DNA from: Alphaproteobacteria bacterium
GTDB taxonomy: Bacteria > Pseudomonadota > Alphaproteobacteria > MPNO01 > UBA830
Length of the DNA stretch: 64,000 nt
Reading direction: 5' to 3'
Assembly (NCBI GenBank): GCA_965243135.1
Contig: OZ251539.1
Span: forward strand, 3,136,001 to 3,200,000
Part shown: positions 17,801 to 20,800 of the stretch, in pieces
How positions within the stretch are numbered: the first letter of the stretch is position 1
How the letters are laid out: every line of letters starts with the position of its first letter
Made by a program: the position numbers

Positions 17801-20800
17801 AACGCTTTCGGCGCTCTGCAGCGTCTTTTCGGGATCTGCCGTGCTGATGCTGTTGGACATCGCGCGGGCCACAGGGGCTGGTGTCTGCGGGACGTCCGTC
17901 ATGGGGGCCGGTTTACTCCCCCCCCCCCCGCACGCGGCAAGCATAAGCAGGTCAAAAGCCGTTTTGCGTTTTCTTCGGCCCGCCCGCAGGCTCGCACGGA
18001 CGCTCAGTCTTCAGAACAAACGCTCATGATCGGCGCCCGCTCGCCCCGTAGCATTTGGCGCTCCCGGAGTCGCGCCGCGCGCCGACGTTCCGCGTTCAGG
18101 CGTCGCAGCATGCAAACAGACGGGGCTGCCCTCGGCGTCGCGCTCCCGAGATCTCGAACGGCGAGCGCCGCCGCGAAATAATCTTCGATTCGCGGAACGG
18201 TTTTCTGCGGCCGGAAGCTCGGATTAGTTGCACAACAAAACGCTTGACCGCCCCCCCCCCCCCCCCCCGCGTATGGTGCCATGAGCCGACTTCGGCAAGG
18301 AGTGCCAACCACCGATGTGTGTGATGCCGCGAAACGCTTGCTTCCCCAAGGACACGGCACTCAAAAGATGGACTCCCAAGCGTAAGCGGGAAGAGGGAAC
18401 GTGATGAAAGGAAACGTGATGAACATGAGAAGCTCTACGCTATTCATTGGCCTGACCTTGGTCGCCGCCTTGGCAATGTCCGGATGTGGGGGCGGCAGCT
18501 CCAAACCCTCGGTGCAATCGGAGGAAGGCCCCGCCGATGGGGGCGGGCCGCCGACGGGGGGAGGCCTGCCGTCGGCGACGCAATTCAGGTCATTCGCCTC
18601 ATTCGAGTTGACGGACGCCGCACGAGGGCACCTCCGAACCGCAGCCGCGACGGCGGCCAGAAACACGCCCAACTCGGGAAGCGTCACGCAGTCTTCGACC
18701 GGCGACGGCACCACCACCGACAGCGTTTCGGTGAGTGTGACGCGCGGCGCGGACGGAACGATGAGCTATACGGTGCGGGAGGCTGGCGGATGGTCGGTCG
18801 ACAGGAGCAGCGCTGGGGTGTTGGCGGAACCGAGTGGACAAGGCTGGAGGGGCATCGAGTTCCATCAGGCGCCAGGAGGCGGCAAAGGCAGTGGAACGGG
18901 TCCGGGATTGTACGTCGACGTCTACACCGACATCGAGGCGCCGACGACCAGAACGGTGCCGGTATCCGATGGCACCGTGACTGTGCCGACCGGCAGCAGC
19001 ATTTTCAGCGGCAACGTCAATATCTTCACCGCTAGTTACAGGGGTGCCGGATCTTTCAACGGCCAGGAGGGTGTTCTCCGTTGCTCAAGCATGTGCAGAA
19101 TAGCTGGTGGGGAAGTAACCTCGGGAACATGGTCCTTTACGCCCAACCGGCCGCCGGGAGCCCAAGATGTCCCCGGGAGTGCTGCCGGCGTCGTCTTCAC
19201 AGGAACATACGACCGTTCTGGAACGGAGGGCACCTTCAACGGCCGGGCCGGGTCTTTCAGATGCATTTCGTCGTCGTGCGGTCGCAACACATCGAACGGC
19301 CGCCTCACCGGACTCAATGGCGATTGGATATTCGTGCCCAGCGGTGGCACGACGACGGTAACCACGCCAGACGCCGACTATCTGGCTGGCGGCATCTGGG
19401 TGCGGGTCCCGGCCGATGCCGCCAGCGTGGCCGACTACGAGTTCGGCGCCTTCGTGGACGGCAACGACCCCTTCCGACAGGCCAATCTGGCAGGCTTGAC
19501 GGGCACCGCGACGTACACGGGCGCGGGTGACGTGACCGGGGTGTATTCCCATCAGGGAACGAACCGGAACTACTTCGTCGATGGCGATGTGCGCCTGACG
19601 GCCGACTTCGGCGACGCCAGCAGCCTGGGAAGCATCAGCGGAACCATCTCCAACATCACGGGAGAAGGGCCGGAGCCGGATTGGTACGAGGGAGTCAGCG
19701 TGTCGCTGAGGACCGCGCAAATCGGAAACGCCAACAGCGGCTTCTTCACGGGCGACACCTCCACCAGCGGGACGGACTCCGCGTTTACCGGCAAGTGGGG
19801 CGGTCAGTTCTACGGTAACGGGGCCGCGGGCGACCATCCCGGTTCCGTCGCCGGTACGTTCGGCGGAGCGACCGCCGATGGCAGCGAATCTTTCGTCGGC
19901 GTATACGGCGCACGGCGGCAGCAGTAACGCGCCGGTCCGAAACGGGGGGAGGGCAGCCGCGCGGCTGCCCTTCTTTTTTTCTCCGTGCCGACGATGAAAT
20001 GGGTCTGCATCCTCGCGGTCGCCGTCCTGCTTCCCGCTTCGGCCTTGTCCGCTTCCGAGAGCTCCCATCTGTCCTCCGACCCTCGGGTCAACGACGCCCG
20101 GGCGCTGATCGAAAGCAGCCGGTTCTCCGAAGCGCTGGCGATCCTGCGTCCGCTGGCCCCGGACCATGCGGACCGCACCGACGTCCTGTTCCTCGTCGGC
20201 CTCGCCGCCATCGGCGCTTCGCAGCAAACCAGCGCCAGAGAAGGGGAGCAGACCGCCCTGCTCGACGAGGCCATCGCCGCGCTGCGCACCATCCTCAACG
20301 ACCGGCCCGGCCTGGTGCGCGTGCGTCTGGAGTTGGCCCGCGCCTTCTTCCTCAAGAGCGATGACGATCTCTCACGTGAACATTTCGAGCGCGTGCTGGC
20401 CGGTGGTCCACCGCCGGCGATGGCGGCGAACATCCGCCGCTTTCTGGAGGTGATTCGGGCGCGCCGGCGCTGGGACGGCCATGTCGGCGCGGTCTTCGCT
20501 CCGGACAGCAACCTCAACGCAGCCTCGGGATCTGATGTCATCCATATCCGCGGCGTGCCGTTCCGCCGCGACGCGGACGCAGGCGCCCGCTCGGGGGTGG
20601 GGATCATCCTGTGGGGCGGCGGCGAATATCAGCATCCGCTCCACCGGAGGCTGCGGCTGCGGTCGGGCGTGGATCTCGCCCGCCGGGAATACGCCGGAAG
20701 AGACTTCGACCAGACCCTTCTGTCCGGGCACGTCGGACCCCGCTGGTTGGCTGACCGAGACGCCGAGGCGAGCCTGCTCGCCAGCGTCCGTCGCCGCTGG

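Follow-up and report, generated by a model that had tools for sequence, protein, structure and literature searches.

The window, a 64,000-nt stretch of the 6.1-Mb long-read metagenome-assembled genome (MAG) of an uncultured alphaproteobacterial sponge symbiont, contained a putative surface lipoprotein gene (18401..19927, + strand) and, starting 58 nt after it, a gene for a Slam (surface lipoprotein assembly modulator) outer-membrane translocon (19985..21340, +), assigned from TPR repeats and a match to PF04575 (SlipAM; E = 9.4e-23, 81.6 bits, cut-off 22). An ankyrin-repeat protein gene (21447..22658, +; Ank_2, E = 5.8e-37) begins 106 nt past the Slam gene and is possibly cotranscribed with it. 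The lipoprotein was assigned to the TbpB/HpuA/hemophilin type from its lipobox, an AlphaFold2 model, and Foldseek comparisons. Its signal sequence ends in LAMSGC-GGGSS, the lipobox cysteine and Gly-rich linker expected of a Slam substrate, and PF01298 matched it under the cut-off (E = 2.4e-4, 22.1 bits; cut-off 26). The top PDB matches to the model (pLDDT 84.1) were HpuA, which was the best structural match, TbpB, hemophilin, LbpB, NHBA, and fHbp (probability 1.00, E down to 2.4e-6), with whole-chain TM scores of only 0.2 to 0.25 and a TMt of 0.65 for the C-domain of NHBA. The model predicts a TbpB-type beta-barrel (with handle) fold, and the linker, the modeled fold, and the adjacent Slam gene together point to a Slam-dependent surface lipoprotein. 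Its 332 homologues were mosaic. Joints in contigs from other samples that skipped 150 to 480 nt within 18942-20770 had short sides at 90% likeness and were read as relatives from other organisms, not as variants of the gene.

A surface-lipoprotein-like paralogue was found divergently on the - strand (16790..17944; 384 codons from ATG 17944, by ORF and translation). On its coding strand, a run of 12 G (G12; C12 on the + strand; 17918..17929) supplies four GGG glycine codons directly after the lipobox cysteine (LAAC-GGGG-SKP). The frame is open at n = 12 and meets a stop 2 codons on at n = 13 and 9 codons on at n = 11. Just MLAAC extends up to the lipobox cysteine, no in-frame ATG, GTG, or TTG was present from the stop at 18011-18013 to ATG 17944, and the closest of 149 homologues begin MHxxxxLAAL...LAACGGGGG; judged from the sequence, the 5' end of this gene looks degraded. 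The collection's gene call (P0121, 370 aa) starts past the tract, at ATG 17902. G12 would thus have the form of a translational switch, yet the gene has no usable start before the lipobox. The paralogue had no match in Pfam or NCBIfam, and PDB sequence searches with both window lipoproteins returned nothing useful, including no match to 18401..19927. Both contigs from other samples that bridged C12 (X6 and X8; 15000-18036, 0 gaps) retained its length, and no polymorphism was seen at this tract.

A second tract, of 18 C (C18; 18251..18268, +), lies 132 nt before the lipoprotein gene, which the Slam gene follows. It makes up most of a putative promoter spacer between a -35-like hexamer, TTGACC (18244..18249, +), and a -10-like hexamer, TATGGT (18272..18277, +), and the leader from the -10-like box to the start codon (18278..18400, +) is conserved with two other sponge MAGs. 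The contig positions at which the initial annotation had placed the two lipoprotein tracts (3153918-3153929 and 3154251-3154268) correspond exactly to C12 and C18. The spacer equals n + 4, where n is the tract length, and measures 22 nt at C18 in this assembly. Together the hexamers pass sigma-70 criteria (9/12) at n = 12 to 14, the lengths needed for a 16- to 18-nt spacer, and a promoter scan at the assembled length gave 0 sites, as expected for 22 nt. The assignment of the hexamers may be wrong.

Tract length at C18 was polymorphic among near-identical sequences. A contig from another sponge sample (X9) carried C11 (519 nt, 7 C left out, 0 other differences), and a contig from a further sample (X6) carried probably C16 (474 nt on 476 nt, 2 gaps, 0 other differences), provided that both gaps fall within the tract. 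The observed C18, C16, and C11 alleles correspond to spacers of 22, 20, and 15 nt, all outside 16 to 18 nt, and none of the lengths observed in samples (11, 16, and 18) was an ON-length allele (12 to 14 C). Lengths were compared between samples through the X6 and X9 contigs for C18 and the X6 and X8 contigs for C12; among the contigs listed, none from X8 or X10 crossed C18 and none from X9 or X10 crossed C12, which is neutral as to length. The population data for length variation concern one locus, C18.

The space between the divergent genes also holds a dispersed repeat of about 225 nt (18016..18239, no strand assigned; DNA search and contig depth), with at least 25 copies in this genome at 73 to 84% identity. 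Its 3' end lies 4 nt before the -35-like hexamer. Between 18015 and 18215 (one bin), contig depth rose about 30-fold; the long contigs of X6 and X8 stop at 18036. The repeat had no Rfam match, and a search of 17800-18500 against Rfam gave nothing at E up to 1. It was considered as a carrier of the tract or promoter and rejected, as its copies elsewhere are not adjacent to tracts; the one by 1307691 is 177 nt from the tract there.

Homologous promoters in other sponge MAGs carried C12 (L052) and C8TC4 with a 16-nt spacer (L051), in both cases with CATGGT aligned to the TATGGT of the window. The window and L052 were identical in 154 of 206 alignment columns, with conservation beginning at the -10-like box. 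Among 71 related Slam loci in sponge-associated MAGs, 13 had a C/G run of at least 9 nt, and 8 of these 13 runs belonged to the lipoprotein gene preceding Slam, in its promoter or at its 5' end. Promoters of this kind included TTGACAcc-G19-TACAAA (L050, 21-nt spacer) and TTGACCca-C9-tcgtt-TATAGT (L112, exact 17-nt spacer), and 5'-coding tracts included C20 in frame (L083) and C19 out of frame (L060). A lipobox cysteine and a Gly-rich linker were also present in many lipoprotein ORFs located before Slam in the related loci. Pattern scans of JGI metagenome contigs for further alleles of the window promoter gave 0 matches. The promoter was found in this genome only among 401 genomes of the same class, and AAATTAGGGTT followed by C8 occurred in this genome only among 21 genomes. 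When 12 relatives were searched at the DNA level with 16790-21340, the only matches were the Slam gene (67 to 71% identity) and the dispersed repeat, so these relatives offered no orthologous locus for a comparison of tract length.

Across the genome, which is 65% GC, an exact recount gave 45 C or G runs of 12 to 21 nt (27 C and 18 G on the + strand), the number stated in the initial annotation, and 16 of them reach 17 nt or more, where it had put at least 11. Its statement that the excess is far above chance was borne out as well. A base-composition model predicted 11.4 runs of at least 12 nt and 0.041 runs of at least 17 nt, and the genome's own run-length decay (extension probability, 0.11 to 0.21) predicted 0.002 to 0.07 runs of at least 12 nt; the tracts were considered far longer than composition predicts. 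The run-length table was bimodal, with 80, 14, 7, 5, and 5 C/G runs at 7, 8, 9, 10, and 11 nt, followed by the 45 longer runs spread over 12 to 21 nt without a favored value. No run of A or T was longer than 10 nt. Loss of mismatch repair was dropped as a cause of the tracts, and the genome is not a general mutator, because mutS and mutL are intact. Tracts were patchy among relatives, being present in 13 of 31 genomes. Counts of 91 (G002), 27 (G004), and 23 (G019), and of 0 in a closed genome of the same genus (G003), agreed with those reported before; the reported count of 56 turned up in none of the 31 genomes.

By our crude ORF reading of a long-read assembly, on whose homopolymer lengths the ON/OFF calls also depend, 30 of the 45 tracts were in promoters, leaders, or 5'-coding ends, 11 were inside defense genes, and 4 were unplaced. 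C18, G12, the 30 promoter or 5' tracts, and the 11 tracts in defense ORFs therefore lie where length would alter transcription or reading frame. With tract length left free, a sigma-70-like -35/-10 pair spanned 5 of the 45 tracts, compared with 10 of 3,000 random genome positions and 26 of 3,000 random intergenic positions; the assembled length was within the predicted ON range in 4 of these 5. Several other tracts followed a -10-like box or were within a leader, and the autotransporter tracts were just past CATAAT-like boxes. A second promoter class consisted of a conserved upstream motif, TGAAATTAGGGTT, then a C-rich or pure-C stretch, and then a -10-like box, and copies with mixed C/T spacers were also found. 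Tracts in the middle of genes encode runs of Gly or Pro, which fall in loops. Most promoter tracts were C on the sense strand, from a reading of the flanks without a formal count.

Tracts were associated with about 15 genes for surface or secreted proteins, 5 RiPP-related genes, 12 defense genes, and 7 transposase genes; 6 were unassigned. The paralogues described in the initial annotation as secreted 1,600-aa proteins do carry tracts and are autotransporters (PF03797 at 881776, 5570204, and 5525652). The copy at 5426, whose ORFs had no Pfam match, was placed with them by DNA likeness only. The reported series of 19/16/12/13 nt in paralogous promoters was reproduced at 881776, 5570204, 5525652, and 5426, and no exact match was obtained to a second reported series, 14/15/12/12. 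Two tracts attributed to autotransporters (3806186 and 4921344) instead precede, at 3806182 and 4921345, genes for putative RiPP precursors of 135 and 139 aa with NHLP leaders. TIGR03793 scores for the candidate NHLP-leader genes were 51.1 (2208758), 50.8 (3806182), 43.2 (4921345), and 31.5 (3781408) bits, with one of the four reaching the cut-off of 50.9. No Pfam, NCBIfam, or PADLOC match was found for the paralogue pairs 1027977/4041262 and 4874797/5518271 or for 5719603, 3343937, and 2870529.

Restriction and methylase genes with tracts had been put at three; such genes do carry tracts, and the tracts that touch genes for restriction, methylation, or other kinds of defense number 10 or more. 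The genes included two Type III mod genes (1267195, G18; 6057475, C21) and several Type IIG genes, and mid-gene tracts were present in an HmaB methylase gene and in the gene of an SspC/BrxC-like ATPase. Seven of the 12 defense genes were split exactly at the tract, as in the SspC/BrxC-like gene, where profile positions 1-728 come before the tract and 728-1044 after it. The domains of a Type ISP enzyme were found on a single chain. The Type ISP gene at 2859508 (1,591 aa) had Mrr_cat_2, ResIII, ISP_coupler, and Type_ISP_C, with no methyltransferase family past E = 1e-5, and the gene at 2085613 had all parts, including N6_Mtase, with the specificity domain cut at the tract (profile 2-157 and 223-342). 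Copies at 83194 and 793994 had the N-terminal part only, before the tract. The 1,591-aa paralogue is intact, with C17 in frame, and a 92%-identical copy with G11 ends early.

Length polymorphism was also found among copies of an ISKra4 element, in which flanks 99.3 to 99.8% identical enclosed tracts of 14, 15, and 18 nt. The ORF starts with ATG GCC G(n). It was open through the tract at n = 12, 15, and 18 (448899, 5407825, and 5425744), all multiples of 3, and closed at n = 14 and 17 (5759341 and 419006) and in a degraded copy with n = 15 (477004). The transposase ORFs were also broken elsewhere, with the profile split over two ORFs. A position of the tract upstream of a minus-strand 343-aa ORF was rejected, as frame analysis and NCBIfam gave a transposase ORF on the opposite strand.

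We consider it likely (probability of about 0.75) that these 45 long runs of C or G represent hypermutable contingency loci of the homopolymer type that change length by slipped-strand mispairing, and we infer that these changes switch expression and that switching is frequent, reversible, and selected. The layout of a large phase-variable gene set, as proposed in the initial annotation, is supported by tract position, by the gene classes, which match those of known phase-variable sets, and by the length polymorphism at C18 and ISKra4. Slipped-strand mispairing in replication would lengthen or shorten a tract; such a change would alter the distance between promoter elements when it falls in a promoter, shift the reading frame when near a gene start, and split or restore a gene when in the large defense genes. 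In the window, C18 would be the spacer of a promoter for a lipoprotein and Slam operon. Tracts of 12 to 14 C would give a 16- to 18-nt spacer and an active sigma-70 promoter, and C18, C16, and C11 would leave it weak or off.

That the tracts or their lengths arise from long-read consensus errors or poly-G artefacts of sequencing is next to impossible in our estimate. Homopolymer lengths are error-prone, and a difference of 1 or 2 bases, such as 16 versus 18, could be technical. However, C12 and C18 both occur, between unique flanking sequences, in independent contigs from other runs, and this, with the absence of tracts from the closed G003 genome, argues against a platform artefact; the 7-nt difference in one contig is too large for a consensus error, and the tracts occupy nonrandom functional positions. 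A fixed role that does not depend on length variation, through DNA structure (i-motif or G-quadruplex-like) or through a factor that binds poly-C, would suit the sense-strand C of most promoter tracts, uncounted as it is, and the conserved motif ahead of several tracts. It is highly improbable, given G19 in place of C at the same position in L050, the lack of a preferred length, the mixed C/T spacers of some TGAAATTAGGGTT promoters, and the Gly/Pro runs encoded in loops by mid-gene tracts.

Alternatively, the tracts may be hypermutable without being switches, expanding as neutral debris in dispensable, horizontally acquired, or decaying genes under weak selection (IS elements, restriction-modification genes, and surplus adhesins), so that split genes are pseudogenes in the course of being lost. 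The 7 split defense genes, the degraded 5' end of the minus-strand gene, the ISKra4 ORFs broken elsewhere too, the lack of an ON-length C18 allele among those seen, and the patchy distribution are all compatible with this, and many affected genes (IS elements and restriction-modification genes) are prone to decay anyway. We nevertheless regard it as improbable, since tracts are concentrated at promoters and gene starts instead of falling randomly within genes, 4 of the 5 tracts that pass the strict promoter test are of a length in the ON range, and unrelated MAGs have tracts, as C or G, at the same functional site ahead of lipoprotein genes linked to Slam. The intact Type ISP gene with in-frame C17 and the multiple-of-3 tracts of all three open ISKra4 copies argue in the same direction. 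Another alternative, with a modest chance of being right, is that C18 affects transcription otherwise than as a spacer, by setting the distance from an activator site to the -10 box or by acting in an early transcribed region or leader. Lengths of 11, 16, and 18 misfit a 16- to 18-nt spacer, the TGAAATTAGGGTT class and the tracts past CATAAT-like boxes show other arrangements, and in Bordetella a fim box and the -10 box enclose the fim C-stretch (PMC1891110). Against this, the tract has TTGACC on one side and TATGGT on the other, a pair that satisfies the consensus at n = 12 to 14, the same order of -35, tract, and -10 recurs in L112, L050, and L051 (17-, 21-, and 16-nt spacers), and there is no known activator site here.

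The proposed mechanism, a slipped-strand contingency locus, is a known one, and its occurrence in sponge symbionts is new in the literature searched; a full-text search found no report of repeat-mediated phase variation in these organisms. Promoter-spacer homopolymer tracts are found in Neisseria porA, opc, and fetA; in the porA type the tract separates -35 from -10, the arrangement put forward here for C18. In Neisseria the tracts are shorter (about 7 to 14 nt), and switching has been measured. Campylobacter and Helicobacter are not known to have MutS/MutL mismatch repair. In contrast to these low-GC genera, the present genome combines 65% GC and intact mutS and mutL with longer tracts. To our knowledge, Type ISP enzymes, the HmaB methylase, and the SspC/BrxC-like ATPase with mid-gene tracts are not standard phasevarion examples, although no literature search was aimed at this point. 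The two Type III mod genes and the Type IIG genes with tracts resemble the phasevarions of PMC7383803, in which repeats occur within Type III mod and other restriction-modification genes. The closest known systems are the Bordetella fim C-stretch and Neisseria hpuA. Bordetella fim2, fim3, and fimX have a long promoter poly-C (up to C19-22) spanning a conserved upstream box to the -10 box, its length affects transcript level, and C/G tracts are also present in the autotransporter genes bapC and tcfA (69 tracts over three genomes). The high-GC genome, promoter poly-C, and autotransporter targets are shared with the present case, and the interrupted tracts of a Bordetella sister species (C6TC3 and C9TC8) resemble C8TC4 of L051 (PMC1891110). 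Unlike Bordetella, the sponge bacterium is uncultured and has 45 tracts of at least 12 nt in one genome (91 in a congener), with targets that extend to genes for lipoproteins linked to Slam, RiPP precursors, transposases, and defense, Type ISP among the latter.

HpuA, the best match of the window lipoprotein model, is a Slam-type surface lipoprotein switched by poly-G in Neisseria, with such tracts in both hpuA and hmbR (PMC3786947). Whereas the Neisseria tract is in the ORF, the tract of the HpuA-like gene here is in the promoter, and the ORF-type G12 is in the paralogue without a usable start. Campylobacter and Helicobacter likewise have phase-variable gene sets based on poly-G/C (PMC8355987 and PMC2823697), with tens of intergenic and intragenic G/C homopolymers at surface-structure and restriction-modification genes. 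Slam-dependent surface lipoproteins are encoded beside Slam genes (PMC5449769); the window gene resembles them in its cysteine and Gly linker, modeled TbpB-like barrel, and place directly upstream of Slam. In contrast to the known systems, Slam-lipoprotein pairs were found here in sponge MAGs labeled as several phyla; in many cases a MAG had numerous copies, and a homopolymer tract frequently preceded the pair.

Phase variation driven by repeats, a textbook matter in mucosal pathogens, has received little attention in the uncultured and for the most part beneficial symbionts that live in early-branching animals. If the tracts switch genes, symbionts would hedge surface proteins, secreted peptide precursors, and phage defenses inside one host, which bears on how they escape being eaten by sponge cells, on their coexistence with phages, and on the "broken" defense and adhesin genes in such metagenome bins. 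For annotators, a frameshift at a C/G run in a long-read MAG of this kind may represent a biological state and not an error. A tentative extension, less likely than not in our estimate, is that horizontal transfer has spread Slam-lipoprotein cassettes and other surface, RiPP, and defense genes with hypermutable C/G tracts among sponge symbionts belonging to several phyla. Each symbiont population within a sponge would then be a changing mix of surface, chemical, and phage-defense phenotypes, with tract alleles that differ between host individuals, and the whole would amount to a community-wide contingency strategy in a mutualistic animal microbiome. The window promoter, with its natural C11, probable C16, and C18 alleles, offers a concrete test case.

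The genome under study, a single contig of 6,103,318 bp with 65% G+C, contained 45 runs of 12 to 21 C or G (27 + 18), and both a genome scan and a pattern-search recount reproduced this number, which the initial annotation had given. Sixteen of the runs were ≥17 nt long, where at least 11 had been claimed. Run lengths were bimodally distributed, with 5,418, 798, 80, 14, 7, 5, and 5 runs of 5, 6, 7, 8, 9, 10, and 11 nt and 6, 6, 6, 7, 4, 8, 3, 2, 1, and 2 runs of 12 to 21 nt, respectively. The longest A or T run was 10 nt, and no other class of simple repeat was prominent in the genome. 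A base-composition model predicted 11.4 runs of ≥12 nt and 0.041 runs of ≥17 nt, and the genome's own extension probability (0.11 to 0.21 per added base) predicted 0.002 to 0.07 runs. The excess over chance is real, as had been stated, and the closed genome from the same genus did contain 0 tracts. A second congener with 91 tracts (G002) included runs of C24 or G24 (L138, L141, and L142) and some inverted pairs of neighbouring G and C runs (at least 12 G, 2 bases, and at least 12 C; C1:770019-770046, 969327-969354, and 2148943-2148970 and C2:329499-329526), which would form long hairpins; no such pairs were seen in the genome under study.

In the window, two divergent genes were separated by a 456-nt spacer. 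On the plus strand, a −35-like TTGACC (18244 to 18249) was followed by G, a C18 tract (18251 to 18268), GCG, and a −10-like TATGGT (18272 to 18277), with a 123-nt leader ahead of a lipoprotein ORF (18401 to 19927) whose signal ends LAMSGC-GGGSS. Downstream on the same strand were a gene for a surface lipoprotein assembly modulator (Slam) translocon (19985 to 21340; PF04575, 81.6 bits against a cutoff of 22) and, starting 106 nt after it, an ankyrin-repeat protein gene (21447 to 22658) that might be cotranscribed with the putatively tract-controlled operon. Ankyrin-repeat proteins are a class often reported for sponge symbionts. C18 makes the promoter spacer 22 nt, so a promoter scan found no site at the assembled length; the TTGACC/TATGGT pair satisfied the same consensus criteria when the tract had 12 to 14 C, lengths that would give the lipoprotein operon active promoter spacing. 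Promoter-spacer tracts are known from porA, opc, and fetA.

The TbpB barrel match of this lipoprotein was below threshold (22.1 against 26 bits), and a PDB sequence search with it gave no match. The top PDB structural matches of its AlphaFold2 model (42 homologues; pLDDT, 84.1) were HpuA, TbpB, hemophilin, LbpB, NHBA, and fHbp (best E value, 2.4e-6), all of the Slam-dependent surface lipoprotein class, with whole-chain TM-scores of only 0.2 to 0.25 and a TMt of 0.65 for the NHBA C-domain. The family was mosaic, many homologues being 81 to 87% identical over approximately the last third only (36 to 38% of the query) and divergent elsewhere, and metagenome contigs covered positions 18600 to 21000 at 10- to 40-fold depth with many variants. 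This pattern is consistent with an outer part that varies and an anchor or barrel that is conserved.

The paralogous minus-strand lipoprotein gene (16790 to 17944) contained a C12 tract (17918 to 17929) that reads as G12 on the coding strand and forms four GGG codons right after the lipobox (...LLMLAAC-GGGG-SKPAP). At this length the reading frame was open for 379 further codons; with one G more, the frame ran into a stop after 2 codons, and with one G fewer it did so after 9, so that the tract has the form of a putative translational switch. Among the matches listed for this family (149 homologues), the closest begin MHxxxxLAAL...LAAC-GGGGG. Only MLAAC was left ahead of the lipobox Cys, and no in-frame ATG, GTG, or TTG was found between the upstream stop and the ATG at 17944; the gene's 5' end thus looks degraded from its sequence. 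The protein collection's own gene call (P0121, 370 amino acids) begins downstream of the tract. A 1,700-amino-acid ORF at 11266 to 16368, with no match in a Pfam and NCBIfam search, ends 422 nt ahead of the 3' end of this gene.

All 45 tracts were subjected to a strict promoter test in which tract length was free and a spanning −35/−10 pair was required under the promoter-scan consensus criteria. Such a pair was found at 5 of the 45 tracts, compared with 10 of 3,000 random genome positions and 26 of 3,000 random intergenic positions. Four of these tracts had an assembled homopolymer length (the basis of the ON/OFF states) within the predicted ON range, the exception being the window C18; a near-miss ahead of the gene at 4874797 (TTGCAT-ttc-G17-TACGGT) failed the test. 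A second promoter class was defined by a conserved TGAAATTAGGGTT box with 15 copies in the genome (among others, at contig positions 114437, 182931, 962194, 3792185, 3814645, and 4210430), followed by a mixed C/T stretch or a pure C tract and then by a −10-like box, with copies differing in homopolymer purity. The box lies upstream of genes for NHLP-type RiPP precursors and autotransporters, among others, and resembles a promoter or regulator site serving a small regulon; tracts appear to have arisen from such C-rich stretches behind it. This order mirrors the fim box, C-stretch, and −10 box given for Bordetella fim promoters in PMC1891110.

The 45 tracts were sorted with home-made ORF calls based on GC3, by frame scans and family searches, and partly by judgement: approximately 15 lay ahead of genes for surface or secreted proteins or at their start, 5 at RiPP genes, 12 within or ahead of defence genes, and 7 at transposase genes, with 6 lacking an assigned class. 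The first group included 7 autotransporter genes (6 by family match and the copy at 5426 by DNA likeness only), a 14,016-amino-acid LapA/Calx-beta adhesin, two large paralogue pairs that had no family match, the two window genes, and one 1,850-amino-acid ORF; an eighth autotransporter gene lay behind a C11 run, outside the 45-tract count. The RiPP group comprised four candidate genes for NHLP-leader (proteusin-like) precursors, together with a C39-peptidase ABC exporter (2208758, 3781408, 3806182, 4921345, and 3795726), and random switching of secreted peptide production would, if true, be unusual. The defence genes encoded four Type ISP enzymes, an Eco57I-like protein and two other Type IIG proteins, two Type III Mod proteins, an HmaB methylase, an SspC/BrxC-like ATPase, and a weakly MAD2-like protein. 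Seven of these were broken exactly at the tract (the SspC/BrxC-like gene had profile positions 1 to 728 ahead of it and 728 to 1044 beyond), and others were intact. The Type ISP tract at 2859508 encodes a glycine run where a congener (G004, L131) has a short loop (..SVAGRDD..) without a homopolymer; the homopolymer, standing in place of that loop, is thus an insertion specific to the lineage and located at a domain junction. The transposase genes were one IS66 copy and six ISKra4 copies (419006, 448899, 477004, 5407825, 5425744, and 5759341), whose ORF starts ATG GCC G(n), with the poly-G two codons past the start and the transposase profile spread across two ORFs. Three copies, with tract lengths divisible by 3 (n = 12, 15, and 18), had an ORF open through the tract, and the ORF was closed at n = 14, at n = 17, and in the degraded copy with n = 15 (477004). 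ISKra4 copies with flanks 99.3 to 99.8% identical carried unequal tract lengths.

The window stretch was present in 10 public runs from four studies, several labelled sponge metagenome, and tract lengths at this locus were compared with assembled contigs from four runs, representing four samples and two studies. A 519-nt contig from run X9 spanned 17975 to 18500 with 0 other letters differing and 7 C missing at 18251 (C11). A contig from run X6 matched 474 nt on 476 nt (18025 to 18500) with 0 other letters differing and 2 gaps, which were inferred to lie in the tract (C16), as the comparison did not give their position. The C18 tract therefore differs between samples and its flanks do not, so that length variation at one locus is supported by population data. 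The C12 tract had the same length in both long bridging contigs (X6 and X8; 15000 to 18036, 0 gaps).

Loci related to the window Slam protein numbered 71 in public MAGs (L050 to L120), came almost entirely from closed sponge-associated genomes, and were labelled as Alpha- and Gammaproteobacteria, Binatia, Thermodesulfobacteriota, Poriferihabitaceae, Arenicellales, Entotheonellaceae, and others (at least six phyla or classes). The best relatives shared 82 to 88% protein identity despite different class labels, and up to eight copies occurred on a single contig (CBDBGH010000003.1), which suggests horizontal spread and expansion of putative Slam-lipoprotein cassettes among sponge symbionts. A lipoprotein gene with a Cys-Gly-rich start lay upstream of Slam in many of the loci; C/G runs of ≥9 nt occurred in 13 of the 71, and 8 of the runs were placed at this gene's promoter or 5' end. 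Promoter cases included TTGACAcc-G19-TACAAA (L050, with G instead of C), TTGA-C12-gtgtg-CATGGT (L052), and TTGACCca-C9-tcgtt-TATAGT (L112, with an exact 17-nt spacer), and L069 carried C13. The 5'-coding tracts, translated as proline ahead of the signal peptide, were in frame in L083 (C20) and out of frame in its homologue L060 (C19) and in L089 (C22). The window promoter and leader were common to L052 (154 of 206 alignment columns identical) and L051, with C12 at the tract position in the former and an interrupted C8TC4 in the latter, resembling interrupted tracts listed in PMC1891110 for Bordetella parapertussis fim promoters. A still longer run, C30, occurred in a Gammaproteobacteria MAG (L053, 94 to 123) approximately 3.9 kb upstream of Slam.

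An assembly or sequencing artefact is very unlikely, because independent contigs from other runs held both window tracts, the closed congener was free of tracts, and tract positions were nonrandom. A general mutator state was excluded because mutS and mutL were intact. Neutral slippage in decaying genes would account for the defence genes interrupted at tracts, the disrupted transposases, and the degraded state of the minus-strand gene but not for placement at promoters and starts, ON-range lengths, or recurrence ahead of Slam-linked genes in unrelated MAGs, and it is improbable as the general explanation. At C18 itself, the lengths seen (11, 16, and 18) correspond to spacers of 15, 20, and 22 nt, all outside the active range, and this is either the chief weak point of the spacer model or a sign of an operon mostly kept off; another transcriptional mechanism there, through activator distance or a leader effect, is possible though less likely.

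The contingency-locus layout is well supported by sequence, and of the large phase-variable gene set that the initial annotation had proposed, the layout of 45 tracts stood, while the tracts as expression switches are unproven. The closest known cases were the Bordetella fim promoters and tract set (PMC1891110), Neisseria hpuA (PMC3786947), the Campylobacter and Helicobacter gene sets with poly-G/C tracts (PMC8355987 and PMC2823697), and phase-variable methyltransferases (PMC7383803). The mechanism is probably that of the known homopolymer contingency locus. Within a limited full-text collection, no literature was found on homopolymer or slipped-strand phase variation in sponge symbionts, in line with the novelty claimed earlier, or on Slam in sponges, which would make this a known kind of locus in a new setting.

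Between the two divergent window genes lay a dispersed repeat of approximately 225 nt (18016 to 18239) with at least 25 copies in the genome (73 to 84% identity) and no match in an Rfam search; it is perhaps MITE-like, and a tie to the C/G tracts was rejected. The long X6 and X8 contigs stopped at the repeat edge (18036), where depth was approximately 30-fold higher.
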